Below are positions 309-24,500 of a stretch of 32,000 nt of DNA, piece after piece. Under the pieces are notes generated by a model, which was given only the letters and a program-made list of their open reading frames with translations, was not told the origin of the DNA and searched no databases. Position 1 is the first letter of the stretch; each line of letters opens with the position of its first letter. A program made the position numbers and the translations under genes. This DNA is from an uncultured bacterium (GTDB lineage: Bacteria; Auribacterota; JACPWU01): the NCBI GenBank assembly GCA_964640155.1, contig CAZXEQ010000002.1, positions 210,001 through 242,000 on the forward strand. Direction: 5' to 3'.

Positions 309-325
309 AACTCCAAGTTTCGCGT

Positions 326-682: not shown

Positions 683-833
683 TATAATACCCGAATATTA
701 CTTACTTAGGTTAAAGACTTTTTGACTCATTGATATAGTTTGCTGAAGAAGGGGCGAGATGCAAGGCACCCCGGACGTGACGTCGGGGTAACACGTATAA
801 AAACCCTTATCCAACAAACGGGAAAGGTTATTT

Positions 834-1820: not shown

Positions 1821-1830
1821 GGATTAAAGA

Positions 1831-3087
1831 ATGAAAAAAATAAAATATATTCTAAGCCTACTTTTGATCTTCTCAGCTTTCTATCTTTTTGCCGATTCTT
1901 CGAATAAAAACCCCTCTCCTGACATTTATGACAATTTGGATCTTTTTGCAAATACCGTAGCCATGCTTCAAAGAGATTATGTAGATCCGGTGGAGCCACA
2001 AAAATTGATTTATGGTGCTTTAAAAGGCATGCTCCGATCTTTAGATCCTCACAGTCAATTTTTAGATGCCCAGGCCTATCGAGAAATCGAGGTTGAGACC
2101 GAGGGGAAATTTGGTGGATTGGGCATTGAAATTACTGTTCAAGATGATTTTTTAACTGTTGTTTCTGCCATAGAAGGAACCCCCGCTGCTGCTGCAGGAA
2201 TTTTGCCCAAAGATCGTATTGTTAAAATTGATGGGAAATCCACCAAAGATATGTCCCTACAAGAAGCTGTAAAGCTTTTGAGAGGTCAGCCTACCACAAA
2301 AATCAAACTGACTATTTTAAGAAGTAAAAAGAAAAAGATTTTAGATTTTGTCATAGAAAGAGCCTTAATTAAAATTAAAAGCATCGCCGCAGCAAAAATT
2401 TTGGAAGATCATATTGCCTATATTCGTATCAGCGAGTTTCAGGAGAGAACAGGGATTGATTTCGGCACACTTCTTGAAAAATTTAAACAAGAAGGAATGC
2501 AAGCCTTAATCCTTGATCTTAGAAACAATCCTGGAGGTCTTTTACAAGCTGCAGTCGATGTGTCAGAAAAATTCATTCCTAAGGGGAGCCTTGTCGTTTA
2601 TACGAAAGGCCGCAAACCCTCACAAAATCTAAGCTTCAACTCTAAGAGGGATCCGATCACCAATGTCCCTATCGTGGTTTTGGTTAATGAAGGAAGCGCA
2701 AGCGCCTCTGAAATTGTTACGGGTGTCGTTCAAGATTTAAAACGAGGGATTGTGATAGGGCAGAAAACATTTGGGAAGGGTTCGGTTCAAAGTGTTATCC
2801 CATTAAAAGATGGGTCCGCTTTAAAATTAACTACCGCAAGATATTTTACACCCTTAGGACGATCGATTCAAGGCTCTGGCATTCAACCTGACATCAGTGT
2901 CAAACTTCCCGCTAAAGAAGCTCTTAAATTGAGAAAGGCTGCCAGAAAAAAATTACTCGAAGGAGAAGAAAGACCGATTATGCGAGATCGTCAGCTTCAA
3001 ACAGCCATTGATCTTTTAAAAGGGGTACGTATTTTTCACGAAATCACAACACCTACCTTACCTGAAAGCAAGGGTCAGGAAAAATGA
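1831..3087 (+). CDS. ctpA: Carboxy-terminal processing protease, peptidase family S41 (Ctp/Prc-like) with PDZ domain
   Basis: N-terminal signal-like hydrophobic segment. PDZ-like region GGLGIEI...GTPAAAAGILPKDRIVKIDG. S41 catalytic blocks are LDLRNNPGG, VNEGSASASEI (Ser nucleophile) and TFGKGSVQ (Lys). The gene starts 10 nt after the upstream stop. Confidence 0.9.
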   Translation: MKKIKYILSLLLIFSAFYLFADSSNKNPSPDIYDNLDLFANTVAMLQRDYVDPVEPQKLIYGALKGMLRSLDPHSQFLDAQAYREIEVETEGKFGGLGIEITVQDDFLTVVSAIEGTPAAAAGILPKDRIVKIDGKSTKDMSLQEAVKLLRGQPTTKIKLTILRSKKKKILDFVIERALIKIKSIAAAKILEDHIAYIRISEFQERTGIDFGTLLEKFKQEGMQALILDLRNNPGGLLQAAVDVSEKFIPKGSLVVYTKGRKPSQNLSFNSKRDPITNVPIVVLVNEGSASASEIVTGVVQDLKRGIVIGQKTFGKGSVQSVIPLKDGSALKLTTARYFTPLGRSIQGSGIQPDISVKLPAKEALKLRKAARKKLLEGEERPIMRDRQLQTAIDLLKGVRIFHEITTPTLPESKGQEK

Positions 3088-4178
3088 AACGGTTTCAAAA
3101 TTGTACATTTGTTTTTTTTCTTTTTCTTTCTTTGTTTTTGACCGGATGTTCTTTCTTCTCCCCCAAAGCCACTCCCTCTCCAAAAATGGAGATTTCGACT
3201 GCACCTCTCAACTTTGGGAAATGGCACGCTGATCTTGTTTCTAAAAAACTTCAAAATGATCAAACCTTTCACCTTCTTTTTCATAGAACTTCTTTTAAAA
3301 AAGAAATTGCTCATTTTAAAGCATGGCTTAAAAACCAAGATTTTGAAGTCATAGAAGAAAAAGTTTTAAAGAGTTCTCTTCCTCAAAAAATAGAATTAAA
3401 GATTCAAAGGAAAAATCTCATTTATAATTTCGAGATCAAACAAAAAGTGAGAGGCAAAATTGCCCTTGTCATTGATGATTTGGGTCATAATCGAAAATTA
3501 CTTCCCCTTCTTTATCAGATCGATTGCCCCATGACTCTCGCCATTCTTCCCCATCTGACTTTCTCTGAGAGCTTATCTAAGGAGCTCCATGAACGTGGGT
3601 ATGAAATCTTATTGCATTTGCCGATGGAAAATACTTCTAATCTTGATCCCGGGCCTGGAGTTATCACCACACAGATGACGGAAGAAGAGATTCGTAAAAC
3701 TATTACAGAGAATTTAAGTAGTGTCCCCCAAGCCATAGGAGCCAATAATCATATGGGATCCAAGGCTACACAAGACTCACGAGTCATGGAAATCACTTTG
3801 GACGAGTTAAAAAAACATGACAAAATTTTTCTAGATAGCCTTACTGCTAAATCTGTCGCTCCTGAATTAGGAAAAGCAAAAGGAGATATCATTCATTCTA
3901 GAGATATTTTTTTAGATAATCAAAATTCTATTTCCTATATTGAGAACCAGCTTAAAGATCTTAGAAAAATAGCACTGCAAAAAGGAGAAGCCATTGGCAT
4001 TGGTCATTTTAAAGCCAATACATTCCAAGCCATTTTCAATATGCAGGAAAGTTTTAAGGATGCAGGGATTAAATTTGTTCTTTTATCGGAGTTTTATAAA
4101 GTTGAACCCCGTACCTCTGCACCAGAAGCGCATCAGCCTTTAGCTGAGAACATAGAACATCGAAATAACTCTCAATAG
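3084..4178 (+). CDS. Divergent polysaccharide deacetylase family lipoprotein (YibQ-like)
   Basis: Lipobox LFLTGCS near the N-terminus. Conserved blocks IALVIDDLG, LAILPH, LLHLPME and ANNHMGS are typical of the divergent polysaccharide deacetylase (YibQ) family. Its ATG overlaps the ctp stop (ATGA), which suggests translational coupling. Confidence 0.8.
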   Translation: MKRFQNCTFVFFLFLSLFLTGCSFFSPKATPSPKMEISTAPLNFGKWHADLVSKKLQNDQTFHLLFHRTSFKKEIAHFKAWLKNQDFEVIEEKVLKSSLPQKIELKIQRKNLIYNFEIKQKVRGKIALVIDDLGHNRKLLPLLYQIDCPMTLAILPHLTFSESLSKELHERGYEILLHLPMENTSNLDPGPGVITTQMTEEEIRKTITENLSSVPQAIGANNHMGSKATQDSRVMEITLDELKKHDKIFLDSLTAKSVAPELGKAKGDIIHSRDIFLDNQNSISYIENQLKDLRKIALQKGEAIGIGHFKANTFQAIFNMQESFKDAGIKFVLLSEFYKVEPRTSAPEAHQPLAENIEHRNNSQ

Positions 4179-4184
4179 TTTGTC

Positions 4185-4217
4185 ATCCCCAAAGGTCTTT
4201 GTCGGGGATCCACTTTT
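4185..4217 (+). terminator. Possible weak intrinsic terminator after the deacetylase gene
   Basis: ATCCCC (4185..4190) pairs with GGGGAT (4204..4209). An inner AAA/TTT extension follows a 3-nt bulge. A short TTTT run lies at 4214..4217. The element starts 7 nt after the stop codon. The stem is imperfect and the T-tract short. Confidence 0.35.
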
Positions 4218-4237
4218 AAGAATTTAAGGTTTTCAAA

Positions 4238-5278
4238 ATGATCGTTCTCGGGATTGAAACATCTTGTGATGAAACAGCAGCTAGTATTTTAAAAGGACCT
4301 CGTGAAATCCTTTCTAATGTCATTTCTAGTCAAATGGAACTTCATCACGCCTATGGAGGGGTGGTTCCAGAAATGGCATCCCGGCGCCATGTGGAAGTCA
4401 TTGATATTGTTGTTCGAGAAAGCATAAAAAAGGCGAAAATTGATCTTTCTCAAATTGATTTAATTGCTGTAACCGTCGGACCTGGCTTGGTAGGATCCCT
4501 TTTGATTGGAGCTACTTTTGCAAAAACATTGGCTCATGCACTTCATAAGCCTTGCATGGGAATCAATCATTTGGAAGGACATCTCTATGCCCCCATGCTT
4601 GAAAATCTTGACCTTGAATTCCCCTGGGTTAGTCTCATTGTTTCAGGAGGCCATACTCTTTTAGTTTGGGTAAAAGCGATTGGACAATACGAGATTTTAG
4701 GCTCTACCTTTGATGATGCAGCAGGTGAAGCTTATGATAAAGTCGCTAAACTTTTAGGACTAGGTTATCCAGGAGGACCCATCATTGACCAGCTGGCCAG
4801 AGAGGGAGATCCCAAAGCTGTAAAACTTCCCAAACCTTATCTCTCTAAAACTTCCATGGACTTTAGTTTTAGTGGACTCAAAACAGCGGTTTTATATTCT
4901 GTCAAAGGATATGGTAGAAACAAAAATACGCCCGTTCACCTAGAAGATAAAGCTTTGAAAAATTTAGCTGCATCTTTTCAAGCATCCGTCGTTGATGTTT
5001 TGACAGAAAAATGTTTAAGAGCGTTAAATCATACCGGAGCTTCCCGATTAGCGATAGGAGGTGGTGTTGCTGCCAATTCTAGACTTAGAGAACATTTGAA
5101 AGAATTCGCTCAAGAAAAAGGATTTGAAGTATTTCTCCCTTCCAAAGCCATGTGTACCGACAATGCTGCCATGATTGCAAGCCTCGGCTGGGCCACATAC
5201 AATGCCGGTCTTCAGGGAGAAGTGCTAGAAGTAAATCCAAAATTGAGGATTAGGGAAGATCAAAAAATTCTAATTTAA
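4238..5278 (+). CDS. tsaD: tRNA N6-adenosine threonylcarbamoyltransferase TsaD (Kae1/Gcp family)
   Basis: Hallmark blocks GIETSCDETA, GVVPEMASRRH, VTVGPGLVGSLLIG, INHLEGH, SGGHT and GGGVAANS. Confidence 0.95.
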   Translation: MIVLGIETSCDETAASILKGPREILSNVISSQMELHHAYGGVVPEMASRRHVEVIDIVVRESIKKAKIDLSQIDLIAVTVGPGLVGSLLIGATFAKTLAHALHKPCMGINHLEGHLYAPMLENLDLEFPWVSLIVSGGHTLLVWVKAIGQYEILGSTFDDAAGEAYDKVAKLLGLGYPGGPIIDQLAREGDPKAVKLPKPYLSKTSMDFSFSGLKTAVLYSVKGYGRNKNTPVHLEDKALKNLAASFQASVVDVLTEKCLRALNHTGASRLAIGGGVAANSRLREHLKEFAQEKGFEVFLPSKAMCTDNAAMIASLGWATYNAGLQGEVLEVNPKLRIREDQKILI

Positions 5279-5603
5279 TTAATTTCTTAGCTAAAGCGTA
5301 TATATCTTTTTTGTCTTGCTCCTTACGAATTCCTACAGCCACTACAATAACAATCACTTTCCCTCTATCTACCTTATAAATAATACGATAGCGTTGACCA
5401 ACTGCTCTAAGACTTCGATAACCCGTTAACTCTCCTACTAAAAGCTTGCCCTGTTTTTCTGGATCGTTTGCTAAATCATCAATACGATCTCGAATCTTTT
5501 CCATGATCCGGCGATCTTGAATGGAAGCTAGCATTTTTCTTGCTTCGTGGGTAAGGAATATTTTCCAACTCACAACTTCAAATCCTTTTTCACTTTCTCC
5601 CAA
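5250..5603 (-). CDS. relE: Type II toxin, RelE/ParE family
   Basis: The C-terminal core LTGYRSLRAVGQRYRIIYKVDRGKVIVIVVAVGIRKE matches the RelE/ParE pattern. The gene lies immediately downstream of a Phd/YefM antitoxin. A GTG at 5573..5571 overlaps the antitoxin stop (GTGA) and may be the true start instead of the ATG at 5603. The 3' end overlaps the tsaD 3' end by 29 nt, in convergent orientation. Confidence 0.8.
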   Translation of the reverse strand: MGESEKGFEVVSWKIFLTHEARKMLASIQDRRIMEKIRDRIDDLANDPEKQGKLLVGELTGYRSLRAVGQRYRIIYKVDRGKVIVIVVAVGIRKEQDKKDIYALAKKLIKLEFFDLP

Positions 5604-5845
5604 GAAAGCAAACGCCCTTGAGTCATTTCCTTGATACTTTTAGAAAGCGAATTCCTTAAATCTGGATCTGCCATCACTTCTAAAGTCTCCACAATACTTT
5701 CATAGAAATCCCACGGCATAATTGCCAGAATGGGTTTTCCTCGACGGGTCACAGTAACCGCCCCAGAATCCTTCTTTCTGGAAAAAGCCTTTGGAAGGTC
5801 CAACAGGGTGGACCTTGCTTTAGAAATAGAGATTGTTTCGTCCAT
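5570..5845 (-). CDS. Type II antitoxin, Phd/YefM family
   Basis: ISISKARSTLLDLPK...VTVTRRGKPILAIMPWDFYESIVETLEV is the typical Phd/YefM N-terminal fold pattern. An AGAGG Shine-Dalgarno motif lies upstream. The antitoxin gene precedes the toxin gene. Confidence 0.8.
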   Translation of the reverse strand: MDETISISKARSTLLDLPKAFSRKKDSGAVTVTRRGKPILAIMPWDFYESIVETLEVMADPDLRNSLSKSIKEMTQGRLLSWEKVKKDLKL

Positions 5846-5863
5846 AAGTACCTCTTTTAGTAT

Positions 5864-5903
5864 TTGTACATCTTATTGTACAAGTATATGCACAAAAGTT
5901 CAA
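5864..5903 (-). promoter_or_regulatory. Putative sigma70-type promoter of the phd-relE cassette with overlapping TGTACA palindromes (candidate operator)
   Basis: Read on the minus strand: TTGAAC (5903..5898), a 17-nt spacer, then TACAAT (5880..5875). Two TTGTACA elements (5864..5870 and 5876..5882, 12-nt period) overlap the -10 and the start region. The second forms the perfect 8-bp palindrome TTGTACAA. Confidence 0.45.
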
Positions 5904-5953
5904 GATTAAATTTTATACGCTGTCCTCGCCATTCGTCTTTTGGAGAACCAAAT

Positions 5954-5998
5954 TTACGTAGCAGCTTCGATCTTACGGTTGACAGCAGCTTGTTGGAA
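5954..5998 (-). repeat. Relic copy of the giant gene 3' end: 14 codons plus stop, FQQAAVNRKIEAAT*
   Basis: 39 of 45 nt are identical to 6547..6591, which encodes FQQAAAQRKIEAAA* at the end of the giant ORF. The stop codon sits at the same relative position. An in-frame TGA lies only 3 codons upstream of the relic, so it is not part of a larger ORF. Confidence 0.8.
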
Positions 5999-6009
5999 AA
6001 ATCTTCAGC

Positions 6010-6270
6010 TTACAAAAGCTCTTTGAATTTTTCAGGAGTGATTTGCAAGTCGTTGATAATACCATGTAAAGTTTTTGGCTTGATATCGTGCCCTGCATGC
6101 ATAGGAATAACAACACGTGCTTGATCAGAATTTCGATAAAAAATGGCGTGACTACCTTTTTGGCGATCTAATTCAAATCCAAGTTGCTTCGCGACACGAA
6201 CCAAATCTTTTGCTTTAACCTGAGGAGGAACGGACTCATGCAGCAATATGGATAGGCTTAATAATAACAT
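6010..6270 (-). CDS. hicA: Type II toxin HicA (mRNA interferase, YcfA-like)
   Basis: KAKDLVRVAKQLGFELDRQKGSHAIFYRN...VVIPMHAGHDIKPKTLHGIINDL is the HicA dsRBD-like pattern, including the G-S-H motif. The annotated ATG start overlaps hicB by 35 nt. A TTG at 6246..6244 is an alternative start. Confidence 0.8.
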   Translation of the reverse strand: MLLLSLSILLHESVPPQVKAKDLVRVAKQLGFELDRQKGSHAIFYRNSDQARVVIPMHAGHDIKPKTLHGIINDLQITPEKFKELL

Positions 6271-6460
6271 CTTCGCAGGGAATAGGTTGTGAATGAGACT
6301 TAAGACTTTCTATATACAGTTGAATTGCCTCTGTAATATTCTTAATTATTTCTTCGTAAGTATCACCCTGAGAGTGGCAACCTCTAAGAGCCGGGCAAAA
6401 GGCATGATATCCCCCATCCTCTTCACGCTCTATAATAACAGTATAGTTATGTTCACTCAT
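6236..6460 (-). CDS. hicB: Type II antitoxin HicB-like (UPF0150 N-terminal domain only)
   Basis: YTVIIEREEDGGYHAFCPALRGCHSQGDTYEEIIKNITEAIQLYIE matches the HicB/UPF0150 fold pattern. The gene lies directly upstream of hicA. An AAGGA Shine-Dalgarno motif precedes the ATG. Confidence 0.75.
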   Translation of the reverse strand: MSEHNYTVIIEREEDGGYHAFCPALRGCHSQGDTYEEIIKNITEAIQLYIESLKSHSQPIPCEDVIIKPIHIAA

Positions 6461-6517
6461 GGATTATATCCTTTACATCCATCACCAACCAACAATTCTA
6501 AAATGCTTGATAACTGT

Positions 6518-6546
6518 AGTGTACTTCACATAAGGGGTAATGTCAA
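6518..6546 (-). promoter_or_regulatory. Putative sigma70-type promoter of the hicBA cassette
   Basis: Read on the minus strand: consensus TTGACA (6546..6541), a 17-nt spacer, then TACACT (6523..6518). The -35 hexamer directly abuts the giant gene stop codon (6547..6549). Confidence 0.45.
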
Positions 6547-6591
6547 TTACGCAGCAGCTTCGATTTTGCGCTGGGCAGCAGCTTGTTGGAA
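6547..6591 (-). repeat. Functional copy of the 45-bp repeat: last 14 codons plus TAA of the giant ORF
   Basis: Partner of 5954..5998 (39/45 identical). Together the two copies bracket 5999..6546, which contains exactly the promoter, hicB and hicA. Confidence 0.8.
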
Positions 6592-9500
6592 GGCCTCTGT
6601 AACATTTCTCATGGCAACAGGTTGCATTGGGGGTAAGGGTTTGGAATCATCATAATCTGAAAGTGTTTTAGCAATCTCTGCAAGTTCATTTGCTTTAAAT
6701 AAGCCTGATTTTTCCAATTCTTGATTCAGTTGAGCCGCTGTCACTGGAGATTCATTGATTAAATTAATAACTGCAAAAAGTTGAGTCAGCACAGCCCCAC
6801 GCTCTGCTTGAACATAAGGAACACGTGCTGCTTTCAAGGCTTCACCTTTACCCCAAACCCCATCAAAATTATCCTTACAAAGGATAAATCTAAAAGAAGT
6901 AGCTGGTAATTCTTGAGCCCCAGGAATACGAGTTCTCAGTTGAGCAAGAACGTCTGTTGTCACATCTTGTCCTTTTGCCGTAGATGGAACAATAAGAGCA
7001 ACTGATTCTAACTCTTGATCTGTTAAACCCTCTGCTTTTAAAAGGCTTCTAGCGATTTTTTCACCTTCCGTTGCAATAACAGGAAGTTTCTTACCTCTCG
7101 CACGATAAGCTTGTACAATTGTTCTTAAACCAACACTTGAAAGTTTACCCGTACCGGTATCTCTCATCATCGCCATATCGATGACTGTGACTATATCCTT
7201 ATCAAAAACAGATTTCGACAAATCTGATGTCGGATTACTCATTTCTTTTGCAAAGGGATCTCGAGCTAAAACAGCTCTGCGTGTAGCTTCAAAATGGGCT
7301 TCCGTTCGATACTCTGACACTTTGCTTTCTGCGAGAGCGTTCAAGAAACCAGGAAGCTGGGTCACAAGATCGTTTAATCTCTCTAAAGCTTCTATTCTGC
7401 GTTCCTCGTCACGAATTCCTGGAATTAAATCTGCTAATTCTTTAGAAATTCCTTCTGTCTTTTTTGTGATCACTCCAGCCGAAACTAACATGGCAAAAAC
7501 GACCTCTGGAGCATCACTAATCCAAGCTTGCATCTCTGAAACGCTCAACTCTGATAAACCTTCTGCTGGAAGGTTGGCTAATTTTTCTTTCAAATTATTT
7601 TGAGCAAAAATGGTGTCGAATAAACCATTTCTAAAAATAAGTTCTTGCTCTGAACGTTGATCCACTCCAGATGCTTGAGTCAGAAGTCTTGTCAATAAAC
7701 GCTGCATTTTTGCTTTGCGAGCTTTTGCTGAAAGACGATAATGAGGAGTTGGAGCATCTGATCTTTCATCTGCCTTCATCCCTTCTAACATATTGCCAAC
7801 TGTACGATAACGCTGCAAACCTTCTTCTTCTTTTACATAGATTTTTTCAGAAGGATTACGGCTATACGGTTCAGAAAAATTTCCTCCTCTAATCCTTATA
7901 ATCGTTGCATTAACTTTTTCCCCAACCAGATAGGCAGCATAAGCACGGTTATGACCAAAACGCATAAAATAGCGTTTACGTCCTTGATCATCCGTTAATT
8001 CATACACAACCACAGGAGTTCTTTGATTCACAGGTTTATCAAATTCCCTTCTCAGCTCTTCCAACCGATAAACAACCACATCACTAAAGATAGAACCTTG
8101 CGTTGGAATAATTTCTGATGGGGCAATGACACGATTTTCCATCGTAATTTCTGAATCCCTGAAAACAGTTCCTCCTAATCCAACACCTGGAGTCTTAAGA
8201 TAAGTAATAATGCCAGGGGGGCGTGACTCTCTAAATTCCGTTCTTCCACCCACTGGCTCAATTCTCCCTCCCACAATTAATCTAGCCCAAGCTTTAAAGA
8301 AATCAAGCCGAGCAACTCTTTGAGGTTCAGGCCTAGATTCTAATTTAGAGACTAGATCATGAATAGTTTCTTCAGGATTTTCTTCAACCATCTTTATTAC
8401 AATTTGTTCTAGAATATGATTTTGAACAGAATCTTCGAAAGTGACTACTTTTTCTCTAGCATCTTTACCTAAGAACTCCTGAACCATCTCATAATGCTGA
8501 GATTTTCTATCATTGTGTTCTTTATAAAGAGCTATTAATTGATCTAGAGTTCTATTTTCAGCAGAAATTTGTTCTAAGAGGAATAGGACTTCGACAACAT
8601 TTGTCCATCTTTTTGCTTTAATATTTTCTTGAATTTGCATTGCCCAGGCAAGAATGTGAATGACACGCGATAGTGTAAACCCTGGATACTTTCCAGAAGC
8701 AAGTACCTCTGCTATCCTAACCTTGTATTCTTTTTCAATATAAATTTCAAACTGTTCATGCTGAAGAGCTGTATTAAAATCAGAGAGTCCTTTTTGAACA
8801 AGAATATAAGTCGTTTGTCCATCTCGAGATTTAAGATGATAGGCTCCTCCAATATTGCGCGAGGCAAAAAGTTGGGCTGCTACATCATTCGCTTCAAACT
8901 CAACGAGTTGATAAGAAATATTCCCCGCTGTATCTGGTGTTGTCCCAGTCGTTTTAGCTTCGGGAGGTAATTTATCTATATAGCTTCTTAAGCCATTCTC
9001 TTCTGCTTCTGTTAAAATGTTTTCAGTATCAGTAGTTGATACATCTACCACACTAACCATTTTACGAGCTCCACCTGATTTTTGACGGGCCTTAAAAGCA
9101 ATAAAGTTTGAGTCTCTTTGTAGGCGGGCTTGTGCAGCTAAAACGTCGTCAAGACTTGGGTTATCTCCTTTCGCTACATATTGTTTAGCTTTAACTATTA
9201 ATGCATCTCGCTCCCATGCTTTCATGGTAATCCATTCTAGTCTAAACACGCTATTAGAGGCTTCTATCCCAAATCTTTCGGTATTTAAGACAGAGAACAG
9301 ATACTCCAGACCCTGCTCAAGTAATGCAAATTCTTTATCTGCCATCACCTGTGATTGTCTTAATCTAGCTTCTCTATCAGCATCTGCCATCACCTCTAAT
9401 TTTCTTAATTCAGCTTCTATATCAGCTAAAGCTTGCTGTCTTGAAAAGAGAGGCTTTTCTGTCCATTTTAAGTCACTGGTCACAACCAGCTCTATCACAG

Positions 9501-12500
9501 CTCCTGTTTCCATCTTAACGGCCTTATAACGCCTTGTTCCATTTGCATCTACTGCTTCGATCTGACCAAAAATTGCATAGCCTTGTTTTACAGCCTCTGG
9601 ATATATTTTCTCAAGCGCTGCTATTTCTGCTTTATCAATATTTTTTGCAGAGGCAAATGCTCTTTCCTGAATTCTCGCAAGTTGGGCTTTTTGATTATCC
9701 TCTATACTTGTTTTCAATAATGCACTCACCTTGGAGCTTAATCCTATTTTTGGCTTTGTCCCTTCTTTATAATGTCGAGCTAATCTTTCTCCAAGAATTC
9801 CTTGTACAGCTTGGTTAAATTCTTGAACTTGGGGAGCTTCATTTGGAAAGAAACGAACAACCCATTTGTCTTGTTCACTTCTATCTGCTGTTAATTCATC
9901 TAATGCATCTTCAAATGAAAGATCTTTAAATTTACTTTGAATGAATTCTTCCAATGCCGGCAATTTCTGTGCGATGGTTTGAACATACTGGGTGCGAAGG
10001 CCGCCTGTATCAAGAACAGGAGTAAATAATTCTGAATTCTGTGCCATTCGAATGTCATTAGCCCAGGCCAAAACATGGAAGATTCTTTCAGCTGTATAGC
10101 CTTTGGGCAATCTTTTCTGAGCTTCCATTTCTCGGATTTCTTTTCCCCATTTGGTTTCTGCAAATATTTCTGAGAGTTCATGCTGTTTATAGAGGGCTCG
10201 ATTACTTGCATTTCGTGATACAAACACATAATGTGTTCCATCAGGCAATGGCAAATGAAATCCATTCGTGAGTTTAAGCTCTTTTGCTAAGTTCCCAATC
10301 GATGGTTTGTTCTTATCCTTAGGCGCAGGATCATTTTCATCAAAATAAATTAATTGATAGCGAATATTGATACCTTCAATTGCACAAGCCTCTTGAATTT
10401 TCTCTACCCCTTCTGCTTGAGCAACTGCCATCAATTGCTGAATTTGTTTATCTGTTAAACTTCTTGCTGTACTATGATTTGGCCCTGGGTCTTTCAAAGC
10501 ACCGACTGCATTTCTTACTACAGTTTCAGGTAAGGATAACTCCTTATACAGTCTCTCAGTAATTCCCATACATGATTTAGCAAAACGTTTTTCATTTTCT
10601 TCTCTTCGTTGAGCCCCCGGACCTACATCTGTGAGAATCCATCTTCCTGAATCGTCCAAGATCTTCCTAAGCATAACTGGCTCTGCATCCTCAGCATTTA
10701 AATACTTACCAGGTGGAGATTGATAACGTGTATTTTTCCATGAAGCTACCTCTAAAAGAACATTCAATGGTTTTCCACTTTCACCAAAAATTTCTTTAAT
10801 TCTTTTTTCTCTATCGCTCCTTAAAGAACTAGATTTTGTAGAAGAACCTAGATCTTCTTTGCGTTTCCCATACAAAGCCCAGTAAAGAAGATCCTCGGTA
10901 ATATTATCCATCTCGTTAGCAAATTTCTGATGCCCTCCTTGAAGATGGTAATTACCAGGTTGGCCTGAAAAATTTCTAATAGTAATTTTTCCATCATTAT
11001 CGATGGCAATATCTCTTAATGGATCAAAATCTTTACTAAAAGTCCGGTCGGGATTTTCATCTATTTCTTTTAATACATTATAAAGAAAACTCGCAACGCC
11101 TTTTAATCTTGCTCCTTTATCATCAGGAAGCGAATTCCACCAGTCTGCAAATACAACTTCTTTCCTGATAGTCACTTTTGGAGGCGTCCTTACAATTACT
11201 GGCATACCAACCAAAGGTTTCACTTCTTGAGGTTGAACAGGTAAAGGTTCTATGTATTTTTCAAAAAGAGGCTTTTCTGTCCATGTTAAGTCACTTGTGA
11301 TAACCAACTCTATAACGGCACCTGTTTCAAGTTTAATCGCTTCATAGCGTCGTGTACCATTTGCATCAGGCTTTTCGATCTGACCAAAAATTGCATAGCC
11401 TTGTTTCACAGCTTGTGGATATATTCTCTCTAATGAAGTGATTTCTGATTTATTAATAGCTTTTGCAGATGCAAACGCTTTTTCTTGAATTTTTGCTAGC
11501 TGAGCTTTTTGATTATCTTCTTTAGTTTGCTTTCGTAAACTCCATCCTACTTGTGTTCCTTCTCTATAATGTTGAGCTAATCTTTCTCCAATCACTCCTT
11601 GTATGCTTTGATTAAATTCTTGAACTTGGACAACCTCATTTAGGAAGAAACGAGTAACCCATTGGTCTTGTTCACTTCTATCGGCTGTCAGTTCATCCAA
11701 GGCATCTTCAAATGAAAGATCTTTAAATTTACTTCGAATGAAAACTTCTAAATCAGCTAATTTTTGAGCTTTTGTTTCAACATGCCCAGCTCTAAAGCCA
11801 GATGTGTTAAGAACGGGCGTAAAAAGTTCTGAATTCTGTGCCATTCGAATGTCATTAGCCCAGGCTAAAATATGGAAGATTCTTTCGGCATTATAGCCTT
11901 TGGGTAATTTTTTCTGAGTTTCCATTTCTCGGATTTCTTTTCCCCATTTGGTTTCTGCAAATATTTCTGAGAGTTCATGCTGTTTATAGAGGGCTCGATT
12001 ACTTGCATTTCGTGATACAAACACATAATGTGTTCCATCAGGCAATGGCAAATGAAATGCATTCGTGAGTTTAAGCTCTTTCGCTAAGTTTCCAATCGAT
12101 GGCTTGTTCTTATCCTTAGGAGCAGGATCATTTTCATCAAAATAAATTAACTGATAGCGAATATTGATACCTTCTATCGCACAAGCCTCTTGAGTTTTTT
12201 CTATTCCCTCTGCTTGAGCTGCTGCCATTAATTGCTGAATTTGTTTATCTTTTAAAGTTCTAGCAGTGCTGTGATTTGGCCCCGGATCTTTTAAAGCTCC
12301 CACAGAAGCTCTATCTATTACTGATGATTGTTTAGTAGAAAAATTTATTCTTTCAAAAATAGATTTCCAAACATCTCCTAACCGTAACCATCCAAGAACC
12401 GAAACTGCAACAGCTCCCAAAATTTTTATAAAAATAGGCACCCAGTTAACACCCATAGCTGCTCCAACAGCAGGCGCAGCACCCACTAATGCAGGTAAAC

Positions 12501-15500
12501 TTGGGATAGCCGCAATAATTAAAACAACAGATAAGAAAGGCAAGAATCGAGAAAGTAGTCCCCAAACTGTCGGGAATTTGGATGCAAAAACACTAAGGAC
12601 AGGTTGTTTTGGTCCTTGGTGAGGAATAAAAATACTCATGACACCCACCACAGCTGCACGAGCCGTGGTTGCCGTTTCATTGGCTTGAAGTCCTTGGGAA
12701 AGTTCCCCTCTTAAATTCACAATAGCGTCGTCTAAATTAGAAACATTTGTTTGAACAGAAGAAAGATCTCTCAAGACATCAGCCCATAATCCTAATTCTA
12801 TAAAGGTTTTCCCAGCGGTCGTTTCATTCAACCTTAATATTTCTCTTAAAAGATCTAACGAAGTTTTTGTCCCTGCCAAGACATCCACATCTTGTGCATT
12901 ACTTCGAAGCATTTCTGAATATCCCCTTAACGCTTCTAAAGTCAATGTAGCTGCTTGGCGACGAGCATTTGCCTGAAAACGTGGAGGTAGGTTTTCTGCT
13001 CTACTCATCAATTCCCGTGCCTGAATTAAAGAATTTTCAATATTTCTTATTTTTCTTTCTCTTTGTACACTTACCAAAACCTCGTTCATTCCAGAAATCG
13101 ATCTGATTCTTGCTCCGTAAGCTTCTATAACTACATTTGCATTTTTTCTTTGCTCAGACCCAAGTTGATCTAATCTAGCTGCAAGACGTTCTCGAACGTC
13201 TAAATAATGATTCATTATTTCTCTTTTTTGAACTTCATCCAATGTCTCTTGAGCCAAAAGATACTCGACATGTAAAAGATCCACTAAATCTCTCATTGTC
13301 AAAAATCGATCTTTAGGACTATAGGATAAAGATATTTTGATAATTTCACGAAGTGTATTGGGAATGTTTGGATTTTCATTTTCTAAAGCTGAAACAAAGC
13401 GATGGGTAAAGATGGCTTGGACTTGCTTAAATTGCTTAGCATTTATAGTTCCATCTTCATTATGACAAGATGTTTTTAATTTTTCTATTTCTAGTGGAGT
13501 TAATCCTCCATCAATATTTAATTCAAAAGGAAAACCTATCGTGAAGAGTTCACAAATTTCAAGAGCAAAAGACCAAACATCACTAGGAAAACTAATCGTT
13601 TCTGTAGAACTTCCAAGGACTTGTTTGACTCTCTCAGGAGCTGCACATTCAAGTCTTCCAAAGAAATCTTTTTCCCCTTCCTTTTCAATTTGTTTAACAG
13701 GAGCGGCAGATCCAAAATCAATCACTTTCACGTTGATGGCATTAGAATCTGCTACTGTTCCCGAAACCATTACATTATCTGAGTTGATATCTCGATGAAG
13801 AAGTCCTGCTCCATGAACTTGAGCCAAACCATTCGCATATTGGCTGGCCACGTGAAGTCTGGTTCTTAATTTAAGCTGAGGAGATTCAGTTGATTCAGTA
13901 ACTGTGGTCGAAAATTTTCCTAATTTTAATGCCTGAGGAACATATTCTATCACTAAAAATGAGACGGATCCTGTCTCTGTACTTTTTTGGTGATCTTGTA
14001 ATATAGCAATATTGGGATGATGACCGATTTTTTCAAGAGCAGAAACTTCTAAATCAAAACTTTTTTCCGCATCGTCTGTATTAAAAGGAACTTTAATAAC
14101 TACAGTTTCTAAACGTTCGTTTAGTGCTAGATAAACTCCAGCCATTCCTCCTTCATCTAACCAACGATAAATTGTATAAGCTTCCTTTTCTCCTTGTATG
14201 ATGATATTACGTTTTGCTAATTCTTCAGGAGACAAGCCAACTCTTATATCTGAAAGAGATATAACATCTTTTCTTAAATCTAGGGGGGGCTGTGGTTTTA
14301 TTGCTTCGCGAGGAACGCGATTTAGTTCAGATTGAACTGCTTTTTCTAGGCTTTGTAATTGTTGCCAACGAATAATTAAGTGATCATGTACCTCTTTTGA
14401 AAGGTTAGGAATGGCTTTTAATTGGCCTAAAGAAACTTCAATTTTCTTGATGCTTTTAAGAAAACTATCTAAAACTCCCAAATACGCCCAATCTGGCAAT
14501 AAAGTGCTCATTCTTTCTCTGTCATGAATAAGAGCAAAAAATACATCCACTGCAGCTTCCAATTTCCCAAGAGCCCTTCTATCAGTAGGTTCTTCTTCTG
14601 TTAATTTAACAACTTCAGCCAAAACATCTAAATCTAAAGCATTTGAAATGGCCACAGGCAAGTTTTGAACACGATTTTCTAAATCTTTTAATTCTCCACT
14701 CAATATCTTTTGATGTGTGTTTCTAGCCCTAGAAATAGCTCTATCCAAATCTGCTAAGATATTTCCTCTGGCTTGCATCGATTTAGAATAATCACTAAAC
14801 CCTTTTAATTGCATCGCTCTGGCTTCATAGGCACTTAAGATAGCTCCCACAGTTGCCTTGCGATCTCCTAGGTTTACTGCGCGCGCATCTAAACGACCTG
14901 CAATTTCAAAATAAAGTTGGCCTAATTCTTTTAATTGAACTTGATTTGGATTTTCTTCTGCTAAAAGTTTTTCTAAACTTAAAAAATCTGAAATATCGCG
15001 CATAGTCAATACACGCTCTTTTGGTTCTTTAGAAAGAGAAATTTTAAGAACGGCCTGTAATGTTTTAGGAATATCCTCTACTCTTTCTTGTTCTAATGCA
15101 TCAACTAGATTCCCAGCTAATACATCTTGCATTCTTTGGACTTCTTCTTCAGAAAATTTTCTTCCAAAGGCTACTTCTATCTTTCTAATATCTTCACTCG
15201 TGATGACATTTTGATCGGAAGTTTTAAAAGGAGAACCCTTTCTAAACACCGTTTCGTAAATCATGATTGCAAAAGCAAACACATCACTTTCGAGCCCAAT
15301 ATCTTTTCTAAGTCCATTTTGATCTAAAGTGCGTATTAATTGAATCAAACTATCTATACGTTCTCTAGACATGTAACTAGGAGTTAACAAAGGTATTTTC
15401 TCTCCTTCATTCTGAAGCGTTGAAAGACGAATCGCTCCTCCCATATCAATTACTTTAGCTTTTTGCCCTATAAGGAGATTACCTGGTTTTAAATCGCGAT

Positions 15501-18500
15501 GAACCCAGTTATAATCATGTAAATCGGCTAAACCTTGTGCCCATTGACCCAAACCATCTAATCTTCGGTAAAGTTTTGTTCTCTTTTCTTCACCTGTTAC
15601 TTCTGACCCTTCTGCGATCGTCTGAGAAAATTGATGCATATCTTTAGGATTTTCGATATTTTCAAGGACTAAAAATGGGAAAGAGTCTACTTTACCGTAA
15701 TCTTTAAACCCTACGATGTTTTCATAAAATGCCGGATTATCATCCTCATATCCAAACGTAACAAAGGCATCTTCTTCTATTTGAAAACTTTGCAAGGCAG
15801 CACTACTAAGATTTAAAGGCATTTTAATAACAACTATTTCATCCTTGTCTGTGTAAGCCAAAAAGACACGACCTAATCCACCTTCTCCGAGAACGTTATA
15901 AATCGTATAAGTACCACGAGGACTTGAGAGAACAACATTTTGAGAAGCAAGACTTTCTTTCGTCAATTCTAAATCATCTAAATTTTTCACCTTTGATAAG
16001 TCTTCGCTTCGCAAATCTCTAACTTTTTTCGACGAGAATCTTATTTGTAATTGCAAGCGTTCTGACGATGGAGCAGATACAGTTTTCAGTTTTGCCATTA
16101 AGGAAAAACCATAGGCTTGAATAGCTTCTCGCGCCAATGTCACGTCAATGCCTGCATCTTCTCTTGTTTGAAGCTGGGCTTGAAAACGATTGACTACTTT
16201 CACAAAATCTTGAACGATGGCTTGAACTTGATTTTCATCCTGTACCGCACCCGCCAAAAATCTTTCTGCTCTTAGAAGTGCTGCCATATCTTGCATGCTT
16301 AATAAGCGATTGCGAGGATTTTTAGACAAACTAATCTTAAGAATTTTTTGTAACGTCCGAGGTATTAAGGCTTCGGGAATAGTTTCATTCTCTAAGTCCG
16401 GAACTAAACGGCCCTCAAGTATTGCCTTTACTTTGGCTACATACTCTCTTCTTAAATCTTCATTCACGCTAGAATATGCTTGCTCTATATTAGCTAAATC
16501 AACGGGTGCAATATCCCTTCCATCTACAAGCTGAAAAGGTAAATTTTTTCCAAAAATACCTTCGTAAACATTTAGAGCAAAAGAAAAAACATCACTTGAA
16601 AGGTCAATTTCTTCCCCTTGAGGCCGACCAGCCAGAATATCTAAATAATTTCTTATCCGTTCTGGTGATAGATAATTTAGAATGCCCATAAAATTATCTG
16701 ATGTTTCTCCTCTTTCATGTATTTCAGACATAGAGATGGCTGCGCCAGGATCAATAACTTTAACTATTTCTTGGCCAGATTCACCGCTAACCAATGCATT
16801 AGTAGGCTGACAATCTCGATAAAGGATATTTCTGCGATGAAATTCCATTAAACCATTTGCCCATTGGCTACTGACACTCAATCTTCTTTGTAACTTTATG
16901 GAATCGTCTTCCAAAGAATAAGTAACAGAATTTCCATAATCATCCAAATATTGGTAATCAGCAATGTGATCAATCACAAGAAAGGGGAATTGCCCGATTT
17001 GACCGCCAGCTCTAAAACCAACAATATTTTGATAAACATCTGGATTGTCAGGAAAAGAACCAAGTGCTTGAAAAGCCGTTAATTCAAAATTTAAAGCAAC
17101 GCGTCCAGGGCCAGTAGTATCTAAAGGCAACTTAACAACGACAGTTTCAAAACGTTCATTGTAGGCTAAAAAGACTCTACCTAATCCACCTTGTCCCAAA
17201 ACCTTATAAATTGTATAAACTTCTTGTGCCCCATGAAGAATGACATTTTGTTCTCTTAAACTTTCTTCACTCAAACCTAACTCTTCAAGTGTAGTAACCG
17301 TGGTCAAATCAATTGAGTTTAAATCTAGAACGTGTAGTTTTCCCATGGCATCTAAAGGAACACCTATAGGTAAATAAGCAATTTTTGCTTCCAATGACTT
17401 AACCCATATCGCTTGAGATTTTCTCAGATGAGCCACGAGTAAATTTCGATAAGTATTGAGTGTATGAATAGCGGAACTTAAATCGAGTCCCTTTTCTTGC
17501 CTTTCTTGAGCTAAAGTTAAAAAGTTTTTTAGGGTCTGTTCAAAAGATTCAATAACCGATCTGGCCTGATTTTCATTAAAAGAATCGTTAGCTAGAAATT
17601 CCTCAGCCGCCATAAAGGCCATCATATCTTGCATGCTAAAGAAGCGTTCTTGAGACTCACGCGTCAAAGCAATTTTCAAGACTTGCTGAAGTCTTTTTGA
17701 AATTCCTGCCTTCGTACCTAGTTCTGAAGGAACGTCATCCCGTAAACTCTGACGGAAATTTCCCCTAAGTAAACCTTCTCTTCGAAGAGCTTGCCCTTCA
17801 TTTAATCTTTGTTGAATTTCTTGTAACTCTTCATGTATGGGACGAATTTCGTCTTCTAAAGCATTTCGAGTTTTTAAATCAGACATAGTCTTTGATAAGA
17901 CTCTCTTACGTGCCATATCTATATCTCGAGAAGCAAGTAAAACATCCAATCTTTCCGCTTGTTCACCAAAGGGATATCCCTCCCTTAAAATAAGTTGATG
18001 CACGATCAAAGCATAAGCAGAAACATCACTGGATAAATTAGTAGGTTCAAAAGCTTTATAAATTCTTTTTGTTAACTCTTTTTGATTTGGGACTGGATCT
18101 GAAGCTTCTAACAGAGGCTGACCAAGCAAAACATTCAACTGGTTTGCAATATCTTTTAATTCTGGTTCAGAAAGAGTCTTAGAAGAAGAAACCCTATTAG
18201 TTAACAAAGCAAGATTCTGTCCTAGATATCTTTCGCGAGACATCCAATTAGGCGTCCCCACATACACAAGTTCAATCCCCTTAGATTTTTGGAGTTGTGC
18301 TTCAGAAATAATGGCGCCCAAATCTATTAATTTAACTACAGGCACTCCATTCACTTCAATAATGAGAATATTCTCTGGTTTTAAATCTCTATAAATCCAT
18401 CCCTGGACATGAAGTTGGTTTAGCGCTGCAGCTAATTGACGAGCAATGGAAAAAGTTGTTTTGGGATCAGGATTTTTCTGTTGAATATATTCTTTTAAGT

Positions 18501-21500: not shown

Positions 21501-24500
21501 GGAACTCAAATACGTTTAGTTCTGCTTGAAAAGAATCAAATGCCTCTTTGTTTAAAGGAAGTTTAATAACAACTGTTTCTCCTGCAGAATTAGTAGCTGT
21601 CCAAACAGAACCATAGCCTCCTCTTCCAATTTCTTCGACAAGCGTATATCCTCCCGATAGTTGAGACCCCCTCCCTAAGGGTGCATCTGGATCCTCTACC
21701 ATAGCCGCTTCACCCATATCTAGGACAGCTTCATCCTCATCCGCAGCAAGAAGGTCTTCTATTGTTTCCGTCGATATGCCTAAAATATTTTCATAAGCTT
21801 TAATAATTTCTTCAAGTGTAGCGACTCTTTCAAGTGAATCCAAATTTTCAGATTTTAATCGTGCTTTAACGCGGTTAGAAATTTTAGCTAAAAGCATTGC
21901 AGCATCAAAACTTGCATCTGGCGTACCGATACCTCCCAAGATTATCTCTTCCAACTTTAAGAAATCCACCCAATCATGAATATCAAAAATACGATCTTTG
22001 AAATCAGAAGAGAGAGAAATTTTAAGAATTTTAAATAATGTGGATGGTATTGGATCTCGGCCAGGAGGGCTTCTTTCTTGAATAATATCTTCTTTTAACT
22101 CACCTTTGATAATGGCATCCCCACGAGCTCTTTGTTCTTTCTTAATTAAACCATTTATCTCTTGCCGTTTTCTGGCGATGTCTGCAGCCACTCGATCAAT
22201 AGCGGATTGATCAACCCTCAATGAGATAAGATTGATTTGAGCCCCTACGAGAGCATTTAGTTCACTTTGAACTTGGCCTCTGTATGCTTGAATTTTCAAA
22301 ATTTCATCTTCTACAAATGGAAACCCCAGGCCATAAAGTTCACAGAAAGAAAGCGCCAAAGAGAAAATATCTGACGAGAAGTCTACTTGAATATCTTTTA
22401 TCTTTTCCTCAAATCCAGCCAAATCAGATCTATCTTCTTCATTGAATATGCGACTCATGCTATGTCTTTCTGGAGACATATAGTAAAGAGATCCAAGAAT
22501 CGAATTACGCGCTCTCTGTGCAGGATTAGACACGTTTAAATCTTCCACTTTTCTACAAAAGCCCAAATCAATTCTTCGAGTAGATCCATCTGGCAAAACT
22601 AAAACGTTGCTAGGTTTAAAATCACCATCAAAAATATTCTGCTGATGAAGGCCTTCCATTCCTTCTGCACATTCTCTTGAAATGCGCAGCTGTTCAGAAA
22701 AAGAAATCGAATGTGTTGAGATATAATCCTCTAGATTTTCAGAATCTTCAGCATATTCAGTAATGAGGAAGGATAAAGGCCCCCAAGAGCCATGACCTTT
22801 ATAATCAATAAATCGAGCACGGTATTCAGGAGATATTTTTTCAAAAGTAGCCGCTTCTGCTCCAATAAAATCATCATAAAATCTTTCGAGATCTACTTTA
22901 ATTGCGACCTTTTTCCCTTTTGAATCAAGTGCACGATAAACAATTGACATCCCGCTGTGGGCAATGACAGATTCAATGGTATAGACATGCCCCGCCTGAT
23001 CTTTTAAGAGAACATTTCTAAGCCGTAAGCTCTCAGCACTCATAAAGAAAATATCTTCAAGTTTTACATTTGTAGGTAAAGCAATATCTTGAGCATTGAC
23101 AATATAGAACCTTTCAAGTGTAGAGGTTACTCTTTGCAAATCTTTAGCTACATCTTTTGGCAAATTCTGAATTTTAGACATTCTTTCAAGATAAGAGAGC
23201 ATGGCATCTATTTGTGCGAAAGTTATTTCTAGAACATGCTTTGCTTGCTTTCGCTCCTCGGGACTGACCCAAATCAGACTATTCATCTGGGCCTGCACTA
23301 GCTCAGTAACAAGTGTCATGGTTTGATACAGAAGGTTTGCTGCCTGAATAGAATCAGGACGCGCAGTCAAAATCCATTCATAGACATGCATGGTTTCGAT
23401 AATTTCATTAATGGCCTGGCGATGTATTTCTTGAACGGTTTTTGGGGCTAAAACTATAGGGACATTGATGCGTACCGCAATTTCTTCCAATTGTTTTCTT
23501 TTTCCTTCCAAGAGCACATCGGGTTGTAAATTTCTCCAGCAACCAATCAACTTGCCAGAATATTGTTCAATCTGTTCAGTAATTTTTGGCATCAGTGTAC
23601 GAACAGCTTCGATTTCGGCTATACTTCTTAAAGGAGAAAGAAGTGCATCTGCTTGTTCATAAACTTCCAAAGCCTCTGCAACATCTGATTTGGTAAGGGA
23701 ATCTGCTTGATCGATCAAAACACCTATTTCTCCAAGAGCCCTTCCAATTTTCTTCTTTTCTGCGGTTAGCTCGGATTGAATGCGAGCTTTTGCAGGATGA
23801 ACTTTACCAGTGGTTTTTTCAAAATTTTGAAGTGCAATCACAGCTGCTGCATACGGACGTATAGCCAGATATGGATTTTGATTACCTATCTCTGGAGCCA
23901 TCACCTCAAGCGCCGTAATCGTCTGAGAAAACAGAAGGACAACATCTGGATGTGTTGGACGAGAAGCTAGAATTTGTAAACATACAGCTAAAATATCAGA
24001 GGCGTTTACTTCTTTGTTGGGCGTACGAGATTTTGATAGAGTCATCAATCTCACAAAAAGATCTGAATCAGGCGCTCTATTTCTATTATTCTGATGAGAA
24101 GAATAAACTTCTTTCGACATTTCCTCATCTGTTTTTTCTCTATACGCACGCCATCTGGGAACTCTGATTAGTTCAGGATGAAGCACAAGCAGTCTGTTCA
24201 AAAGAATGGAACTGATATAGATAAGAGAATTTCTACTTTCCACATCTTGTGTTTTTTTAACTCGCTCTACGAAATCATCTAATAGCATTTGCATCGAATC
24301 GGCATCTGAAGATATCCCGAGAGATCTTAATTTCTGTAAGACCTGGGTTCTTGGGGTCATGAGTCTGGCCCATAAGTTATTAAACACTGGACTACGTCGA
24401 ATAAACTCAGGTAAATAACTTAACCGTGCCACAAGCTGACCCATCAAATCATGAATTCCCCAATCATAAAGACTCCAGTTTTCTTCAGCAGAGGCAGTTC

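Follow-up and report, generated by a model that had tools for sequence, protein, structure and literature searches.

Can a single bacterial gene encode seven complete protein kinases, one after the other? The question is raised by a stretch of DNA of 32,000 nucleotides (the window, in what follows) from an uncultured bacterium of the Auribacterota (assembly GCA_964640155.1, contig CAZXEQ010000002.1, positions 210,001 to 242,000 of the forward strand). Its minus strand carries a giant open reading frame (ORF) at window 6547-31998, which runs uninterrupted over 25,452 nt and comprises 8,483 codons plus a stop. A first examination of the letters, made with no database searches and called here the original prediction, placed seven tandem Hanks-type Ser/Thr kinase-like domains in this one polypeptide, at window 13255-22986. 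We are now close to certain that the array is genuine, with seven Hanks-type Ser/Thr kinase domains in one giant bacterial protein of at least 8,483 amino acids (aa). The term "kinase-like" understates them: all seven are of the Hanks type, and the Lys/Asp/Asp triad, whose loss defines a pseudokinase, is intact in every one, so that none is a pseudokinase by this test.

Seven kinase domains in one chain

Pfam recognises seven Pkinase stretches within aa 2901-6300 of the giant protein (E 2.9e-144). The original prediction had staked its claim on most of the segments matching a kinase hidden Markov model; when each unit is scanned singly, all seven score above the PF00069 gathering score of 31.7 bits. 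The PF00069 envelopes of the seven domains (K1 to K7) together span window 13270-23001, in good agreement with the coordinates first proposed. The conserved unit is slightly longer, and the whole array, with the end of the pre-kinase linker, the N-lobe extension, the kinase and the tail of each unit, extends over about window 13009-23184 (minus strand, aa ~2939-6330).

Three units, K2, K4 and K6, have motifs that are canonical throughout, those of a Ser/Thr-type RD (Arg-Asp) kinase. K2 (window 20566-21663, on the minus strand like the other six; aa 3446-3811; PF00069 E 1.2e-22, 81.0 bits) has GRGGYGSV, VVIK, IRDIKPLN, DFG and APER. K4 (window 17611-18795, aa 4402-4796; E 9.6e-22, 78.1 bits) has YRDLKPEN, DLG and SRER, together with the longest gap of the seven between APE and subdomain IX (70 residues), and K6 (window 14977-15924, aa 5359-5674; E 2.2e-21, 76.9 bits) has HRDLKPGN and DMG. 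An HRDxKxxN catalytic loop and a Gly-Thr before APE, as seen in K2 and K4, are signatures of Ser/Thr kinases. The remaining four domains carry substitutions. K1 (window 21955-23001, aa 3000-3348; E 5.9e-16, 59.1 bits) combines a non-RD catalytic loop, GDFKPSN, and a degenerate Gly loop, AHSGMSIV, with VAIK, DLG and SPER. In K3 (window 19171-20304, aa 3899-4276; E 7.2e-20, 71.9 bits) the catalytic-loop Lys has become Asn (YRDLNPNN), next to DMG and APDR; in K5 (window 16270-17232, aa 4923-5243; E 3.2e-17, 63.3 bits) it has become Gln (YRDCQPTN), and DPG takes the place of DFG. Finally, K7 (window 13270-14193, aa 5936-6243; E 1.0e-24, 87.8 bits) has HRDINSDN, with Asn for Lys and Ser for Pro, followed by DFG and APER.

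Except for the APD of K3, the DPG of K5 and the missing HRD Arg of K1, the eukaryotic protein kinase (ePK) motifs stand in canonical order, and a regular-expression pass recovers all of the motifs originally described. The same pass puts the beta3 Lys 92, 106, 99, 103, 106, 110 and 101 residues before the catalytic Asp in K1 to K7, the very range (92-110) given before. The Gly loops begin at aa 3013, 3458, 3912, 4414, 4935, 5371 and 5948, and their successive spacings of 445, 454, 502, 521, 436 and 577 residues exactly reproduce those of the original prediction. An alignment of the seven units contains 23 invariant columns. The residues found in every unit include the beta3 Lys, the alphaC Glu, the catalytic Asp and Asn, the Asp and Gly of DxG, the subdomain IX Asp and the subdomain XI Arg; six of the seven are RD kinases, K1 being the non-RD one.

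A model of K6 (328 aa, AlphaFold 2, with the seven units as its sole input alignment) has the bilobal kinase fold, with a predicted local distance difference test score (pLDDT) of 87.1 and a predicted template modelling score (pTM) of 0.88. Compared with the PDB by Foldseek, this model gives 1,809 matches at E<=0.001, headed by Mps1/TTK, PhK-gamma and M. tuberculosis PknB (E ~1e-13 to 1e-12), and its template modelling score (TM-score) against PknB reaches 0.80. A sequence profile of the unit likewise finds TTK (E 3.6e-31), StkP (1e-27) and PknB (7e-26) among solved structures. We take the units to be a standard bilobal eukaryotic-like kinase, roughly equally far from the bacterial and the eukaryotic members of the family. 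The unit-by-unit structure prediction that had been proposed as a check thus stands with confidence for K6 alone; K5 was modelled at low confidence, within a K5-K6 pair.

Reality and extent of the giant gene

An array of this kind could in principle be a mis-assembled repeat, or the remains of a decaying pseudogene. At ~38% GC, stop codons are expected at a frequency of 0.066 per codon, and a stop-free run of 8,483 codons would arise by chance with P ~ e^-582. When aligned by codons, the kinase units have only 44-55% nucleotide identity, and the DNA matches between them are short and in register (at most 113 nt at 73%, the others 20-54 nt at 60-92%). As units this diverged, with no long DNA repeats between them, are too far apart to mis-assemble, a collapsed or mis-assembled repeat as the source of the array is excluded; the earlier judgement that the copies are old and no assembly artefact was correct. 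The invariance of the catalytic residues across the units speaks against decay. Moreover, the 3' part of the giant gene and the adjoining genes (window 1829-9585, a span outside the kinase array) are 100% identical in short-read assemblies from two Sequence Read Archive (SRA) runs (SRR8893623 and SRR31893870), neither of whose numbers turned up in a paper. One such sequence, the Logan contig L081, matches window 2184-9585 at 100% identity and ends at 9585, inside the second copy of a C-terminal module described below. It is in this 80%-identical repeat that the short-read assemblies break, which could be held in favour of an artefact, as could the lack of any protein with exactly the giant ORF's start in a public collection of 15 billion proteins. 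On balance, an artefact or a dead gene is hardly credible.

The first ATG of the giant ORF is preceded by just two bases before the edge of the window, and the frame is still open there. The true start may therefore be outside the window; the N-terminus is probably incomplete and the gene longer than 25.4 kb.

The repeat unit and its duplication

The repeated unit had been described as larger than the kinase fold, and both of its flanks bear this out. A pre-kinase segment, GLSxExL...NV, precedes the kinase; its short motif is conserved before K3 to K7 and weakly so before K1, and ~60 residues upstream of K1 match the linkers ahead of K5 and K7. The corresponding ESLASQNVVL of the K6 model, along which pLDDT climbs from 68 to 92, folds as a short helix followed by an additional strand next to beta1, and hence it belongs to the N-lobe. 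On the other side, the LKISLSxxPxxR helix is followed in each unit by a tail of ~50-90 residues with an [AST]-Y motif, whose Tyr is invariant in all seven. In the K5-K6 model, which includes one such linker, the tail consists of three or four helices at moderate confidence (block pLDDT 58-83).

The protein sequences of the units are 23-40% identical in pairwise comparisons. A neighbour-joining tree places K5, K6 and K7 in one group and K2, K3 and K4 in another, with K1 apart. For each unit the best BLAST matches are the other six units, over 320-410 aa and with up to 211 bits; the best outside proteins (the top 150 from a search of 1.84 billion representatives) match over the core alone, 190-330 aa, with up to 89 bits. 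Since the units are closest to each other and adjacent ones cluster, internal duplication of neighbours, long ago, would account for the growth of the array. We consider it very probable, from these comparisons, that a unit of ~450 aa was repeatedly duplicated in tandem, neighbour from neighbour, and that a long divergence followed. An alternating kinase/pseudokinase pair was also considered as the unit of duplication and was ruled out, as it is neighbours (K5-K7 and K2-K4) that come together in both the tree and the identity matrix, and not every second unit.

Divergence has been far from uniform along the unit. Mean pairwise identity is highest at DxG (62% over 6 aa) and APE (58%; 5-31 aa across the units), and remains substantial in the alphaI helix IPxTLxxVLKISLSxxPxxR (50%, 20 aa), in alphaF (45%, 15-16 aa) and from beta1 to beta3 (40%, 26 aa). 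It falls to 22% in the activation segment (22-27 aa), to 17% in the insertion between alphaF and alphaI, the alphaG-alphaH region (51-91 aa), and to 14% in the insertion that follows APE (13-59 aa). The predicted nucleotide-binding and catalytic machinery is thus retained in every copy, while the surfaces that usually bind substrates or regulators have drifted apart.

Relatives and comparable systems

The original prediction had proposed that orthologues be sought in public genomes and metagenomes and their kinase repeats counted. None was found in the collections scanned, which may miss very long or fragmented proteins and from which the giant protein itself was not recovered either; what did turn up were other poly-kinase proteins. 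The whole array, compared with 5.8 billion clusters in a word-indexed search, gave no orthologue and a best match of 74 bits, and K7 alone gave none in the same clusters, its best match being 29% identical (E 6e-11). An exhaustive HMMER search of the 1.84 billion representatives yielded no orthologue, only generic kinases and unrelated multi-kinase proteins. In the JGI metagenomes there was no match to six peptides from aa 2500-3100, nor to a degenerate 50-bit DNA pattern for IPxTLxx[VI][LI]KISLSxxP[KR][DNE]R, which within the window matches K5, K6 and K7 and which had no match in 100 shuffles. Scans of IMG/VR, including one with the DNA signature of K5-K7, were similarly without a match.

The exhaustive search did bring up many two-kinase proteins, planctomycete-like and Chloroflexi-like proteins with four or five kinase domains, and eukaryote-like sequences with about nine or more tyrosine-kinase-like domains (P0013). 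The top matches of the profile search were a set of apparently bacterial giants from metagenomes, 2,400-7,200 aa long, each of which contains three to seven Hanks kinase stretches (P0008, P0011, P0012, P0017, P0034, P0020, P0023, P0019, P0057 and P0069). Pfam finds six Pkinase stretches in the 3,907 aa of P0008 and five in the 3,940 aa of P0023; a purpose-built kinase-core profile finds seven in P0020, some of them partial. Like the giant protein studied here, they have multiple Hanks kinases and a membrane anchor, theirs being N-terminal, and are otherwise unannotated, but outside the kinases they have no similarity to it (BLASTP E 0.17 or worse). The P0008 type among them is marked by an N-terminal QDPHNNIKAQY domain and a C-terminal ...VAxMA domain on either side of the kinases, and to the latter the giant protein has no homology. 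Domain for domain, they match its kinases with at most 86 bits, compared with up to 116 for the two-kinase proteins. The metagenomic giants seem to embody the same architectural idea, arrived at independently in all probability.

Two more specific links to these proteins were examined and rejected. A C-terminal domain shared with P0008, P0020 or P0019, suggested by similar xxAxxA tails, was ruled out by BLASTP and by hhalign (probability 0.3%), and an HExx[ED] module shared with P0057, P0069 or P0019, a possible processing protease suggested by eye, found no support from hhalign (probabilities of 0.2-1.2%). Among the metagenomic proteins themselves, several share the N-terminal QDPHNNIKAQY-type domain, and their linkers carry short motifs that recur to the eye, A[QR]SLG in P0008 and RSE[LV]R in P0020 and P0023; these look like processing or docking sites.

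Among characterised bacterial proteins, PknB, StkP and PknA have the same catalytic family and fold, a Ser/Thr-type catalytic loop and an association with the membrane, and the unit profile matches their structures with E from 1e-27 (StkP) to 1e-23. They have, however, one kinase, one transmembrane helix and extracellular PASTA or other sensors, in contrast to seven kinases in a chain of 8.5 thousand aa. Unlike theirs, the units described here have their own N-lobe strand, insertions after APE and in the alphaG-alphaH region, and a helical tail. The model for the PknB/Stk1 PASTA class (NF033483) scores 434.9 bits, summed over the seven domains, below its cut-off of 450, and there is no hit to the PASTA domain (PF03793).

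Chains with more than one ePK domain are familiar from eukaryotes: RSK/MSK, JAK, obscurin/SPEG and the plant tandem kinase proteins (TKPs, for example WTK1/Yr15), obscurin being a giant as well. JAK is a kinase-pseudokinase pair. Thirteen human kinases have two tandem domains (PMC8449880), and plant TKPs are presented as kinase-pseudokinase pairs in passages of PMC6170490 and PMC6997164. These eukaryotic proteins have two kinase domains, whereas the bacterial giant has seven with all triads intact, and nothing is detectably shared beyond the superfamily. With seven domains and the triad in all of them, it also falls outside the kinase-pseudokinase tandem class, which has two domains, one of them lacking catalytic residues.

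A further parallel is with the giant proteins of the Omnitrophota, which are likewise very long single ORFs of uncultured bacteria, with transmembrane segments and mostly unannotated. Two of their classes, the cytoplasm-facing proteins whose only recognised features are transmembrane (TM-only) and the tandem-repeat scaffolds (10.64898/2026.06.07.730766), resemble the protein studied here. The content reported for these giants is SecA-DEAD, histidine-kinase ATPase, sugar-metabolism and HEAT/TPR (10.1101/2023.11.21.568195, 10.64898/2026.06.07.730766); Ser/Thr kinase arrays are not mentioned in either source. The "archaeovorins" of the same phylum exceed 30,000 aa and have numerous transmembrane regions and a divergent SecA-DEAD domain; the present protein is not one of them, as its length is at least 8,483 aa, its predicted transmembrane helices number five or six and it gave no SecA hit.

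In the literature we met tandem kinases only in eukaryotic proteins with two domains, and no bacterial protein described as having more than two Hanks kinase domains. The original prediction, which knew of no described bacterial protein with seven, agrees with this search of published work, but metagenomic proteins with five to seven kinases do exist, undescribed. The domain family itself is ordinary; what lacks a description is its seven-fold, long-maintained repetition in a giant membrane protein of a bacterium. That five- to seven-kinase giants occur in metagenomic data, and that giant multi-domain proteins of uncultured bacteria are increasingly reported, tempers the surprise.

The array departs from the usual pattern. 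Bacterial Hanks-type kinases have been studied as one-domain sensors, and the well-described multi-kinase proteins stop at two domains. Seven intact and long-diverged domains would mean that kinases can duplicate and specialise inside one gene and not only across a genome. The copies are also a natural experiment on the variable parts of a kinase, in which the activation segment and the post-APE and alphaG-alphaH insertions vary around a constant core. Together with the five- to seven-kinase metagenomic giants, they suggest a class of bacterial signalling or effector proteins that has so far gone unrecognised.

A proposed membrane-tethered kinase platform and its alternatives

What might a bacterium do with seven kinases on one chain? 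Judging by hydropathy, the giant protein appears to be membrane-anchored; relatives are detectable for its kinase domains only. A Kyte-Doolittle scan over 19 residues finds two hydrophobic clusters, both on the minus strand. Cluster 1 (window 25864-26328, aa 1891-2045; peaks 1.7, 2.68, 2.66 and 1.66) lies ~950 aa upstream of K1 and comprises three or four predicted transmembrane helices, their count and parity being uncertain. Cluster 2 (window 12379-12546, aa 6485-6540; peaks 2.33 and 2.11) is a tight two-helix hairpin of ~50 aa, ~240 aa after K7. Weak as they are, the two clusters bracket the kinase array plus its helical flanks. Two further peaks, within K1 and K4, barely exceed the threshold and were not counted as membrane segments.

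The best explanation overall, and one we hold to be quite possible if a little short of probable, is a membrane-anchored, duplicated seven-kinase array acting as a multi-kinase platform. The mechanism behind it can be sketched more tentatively still, as a reasonable possibility. As kinases need ATP, the array is most simply read as facing the cytoplasm, with a tether at either end: the flanking hydrophobic clusters would hold it on the cytoplasmic side of the membrane, within reach of ATP. Every domain would still bind ATP, and at least the canonical K2, K4 and K6 would phosphorylate Ser or Thr. Because the core has been kept while the activation segment and the two insertions differ, the domains probably differ in their substrates or partners, which would make the protein a multi-specificity platform, in effect a small kinome on one chain. 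Adjacent RD kinases may trans-phosphorylate and so activate one another, with the non-RD K1 as a candidate constitutive starter. A more elaborate version seems unlikely to us: a single-chain, membrane-anchored relay of seven specialised kinases in fixed order, separated by helical spacers, activated sequentially from K1 and acting on different targets, and forming a class with the other poly-kinase giants. The targets of such a relay, if it exists, would lie in the bacterium itself or, were the protein delivered, in a host or prey cell.

Several observations weigh against the platform. The degenerate Gly loop of K1 and its HRD without Arg are substitutions that weaken many kinases, and to these must be added the exchange of the catalytic-loop Lys for Asn in K3, Gln in K5 and Asn in K7, as well as the DPG that replaces DFG in K5. 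With the number of helices in cluster 1 uncertain, the N-terminal 1,890 aa could be across the membrane. Neither the giant protein nor the window shows an FHA domain, a PP2C phosphatase or another of the usual partners. The two-kinase model of K5-K6 is too poor (pLDDT 60, pTM 0.44) to show how the domains pack, and its alignment was also out of register because overlapping pairs share units.

With non-canonical motifs in four of the seven units (K1, K3, K5 and K7), the array might instead be a mostly non-catalytic scaffold, with activity confined to one domain or a few, the others being pseudokinases that would bind partners or nucleotide as docking or allosteric modules, somewhat as in JAK, the plant tandem kinases and further kinase-pseudokinase pairs. 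Such pairs are frequent among well-described tandem-kinase proteins (passages of PMC6170490 and PMC6997164). However, the beta3 Lys, the catalytic Asp and the DxG Asp have been lost in none of the seven units, and the alphaC Glu and the catalytic-loop Asn are invariant too; at an overall identity of only 23-40%, this suggests that selection has gone on acting on the active site of each copy, and we consider such a scaffold improbable. A polyprotein, a precursor cut at conserved linker sites such as the LGLSxE before each kinase and delivering seven kinases in equal amounts, is a shade less probable again. The short motif ahead of K3 to K7, weakly also K1, could mark such sites, as could the recurrent linker motifs seen by eye in P0008, P0020 and P0023, and self-cleavage by peptidase domains has been raised as a possibility for giant genes (10.1101/2023.11.21.568195). 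Yet ESLASQNVVL is built into the fold of the K6 model and is not an exposed linker, no protease domain is found anywhere in the giant protein by Pfam or NCBIfam, and its HExxE motifs have no significant profile match (probability < 2%) to the HE-containing modules of other giants.

Of the readings that look beyond the cell's own signalling, the one deserving most attention is that a host-associated or predatory bacterium uses the protein as a giant effector. The whole of it, or a part, would reach or enter the membrane of a host or prey by means of its hydrophobic hairpins, much as chlamydial Inc proteins do, and the kinases would phosphorylate host or prey proteins with host ATP. If that were true, it would be an unusually rich effector. 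Tight two-helix hairpins are typical of inclusion-membrane proteins, and hydrophobic cluster 2 has this shape. The kinases are about equally close to eukaryotic TTK/PAK and to bacterial PknB/StkP, the protein is fast-evolving with no detectable relatives beyond its kinase domains, and giant proteins have been linked to predatory Omnitrophota (10.1101/2023.11.21.568195). Eukaryotic-like kinases do occur in bacterial effectors (Legionella LegK1-4, Yersinia YpkA, Salmonella SteC), but in these the kinase domain is single and the secretion systems are known, and the weak, partial match to LegK1 (NF043056, 97.3 bits) is far below the full-length cut-off of 550 bits. In addition, the window showed no sign of a secretion signal, a secretion-system gene or a eukaryote-like repeat, exporting a chain longer than 8,400 aa would by our own estimate be unusual, and the TM-only giants of the Omnitrophota are read as cytoplasm-facing (preprint 10.64898/2026.06.07.730766). 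We therefore find an effector doubtful, if conceivable. An anti-phage defence kinase related to PD-T4-6, Stk2, MAD6 of the MADS system or PglW of BREX, one that senses infection and shuts the cell down by mass phosphorylation, is very improbable. The PADLOC models PD-T4-6, mad6, MkoA and Stk2 do match, as do the NCBIfam models for MAD6 (NF047741, 270.7 bits) and PglW (NF033442, 97.7 bits), and the giant gene is directly followed downstream by two toxin-antitoxin pairs. But these are generic kinase-domain matches summed over seven domains, ~78 bits per domain, and they remain below the curated cut-offs (460 for MAD6, 990 for PglW); no partner genes of the PD-T4-6, Stk2, MADS or BREX systems are present in the window, and the non-kinase parts of the protein have no match in PADLOC or PHROGs.

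The rest of the protein and its genomic surroundings

Outside the kinases, no family or match was found for any part of the giant protein in Pfam, NCBIfam, PHROGs, PADLOC or the PDB sequences. In the C-terminal third there are two modules of ~415 aa that are 80% identical (window 9337-12384, minus strand, aa 6539-7554), a recent duplication; a third copy, partial and diverged, is ~36% identical (window 8587-8922). The module has no homologue among the 5.8 billion clusters and no family match. At the start of the second module, inside the giant ORF, a 45-nt unit occurs twice in tandem (window 9337-9426, 86% matches). Three kinds of short motif were noticed by eye, all without support from Pfam at E<=10 or from profile comparison: an HD-like ILAIHDIGK (aa ~110-150, window ~31550-31670), a ParB-like RFGHNRAYAA (aa ~7990-8010, window ~7970-8030), and four HExxE motifs (aa 513, 6674, 7273 and 7747).

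Six ORFs of at least 150 aa are listed for the window, among which the giant one is dominant, and an Rfam scan of the window found no RNA family. Directly downstream of the giant gene's stop, on the minus strand (window 5250-6460), are the two toxin-antitoxin pairs, ParE/RelE with Phd/YefM and HicA with HicB. The plus strand of window 834-5278 carries ordinary housekeeping genes, for an epimerase/decarboxylase of the UDP-sugar type, an S41 C-terminal protease, a divergent polysaccharide deacetylase and TsaD; among the genome-contig matches listed for TsaD, the relatives are 49-56% identical. The 10 kb to the left of the window (L084, positions 1-10000), with no signs of mobile elements, are likewise an ordinary chromosomal context, encoding RsmB/F, a polyprenyl synthase, sigma-54 (RpoN), a radical SAM protein, an aminotransferase and an inositol monophosphatase.

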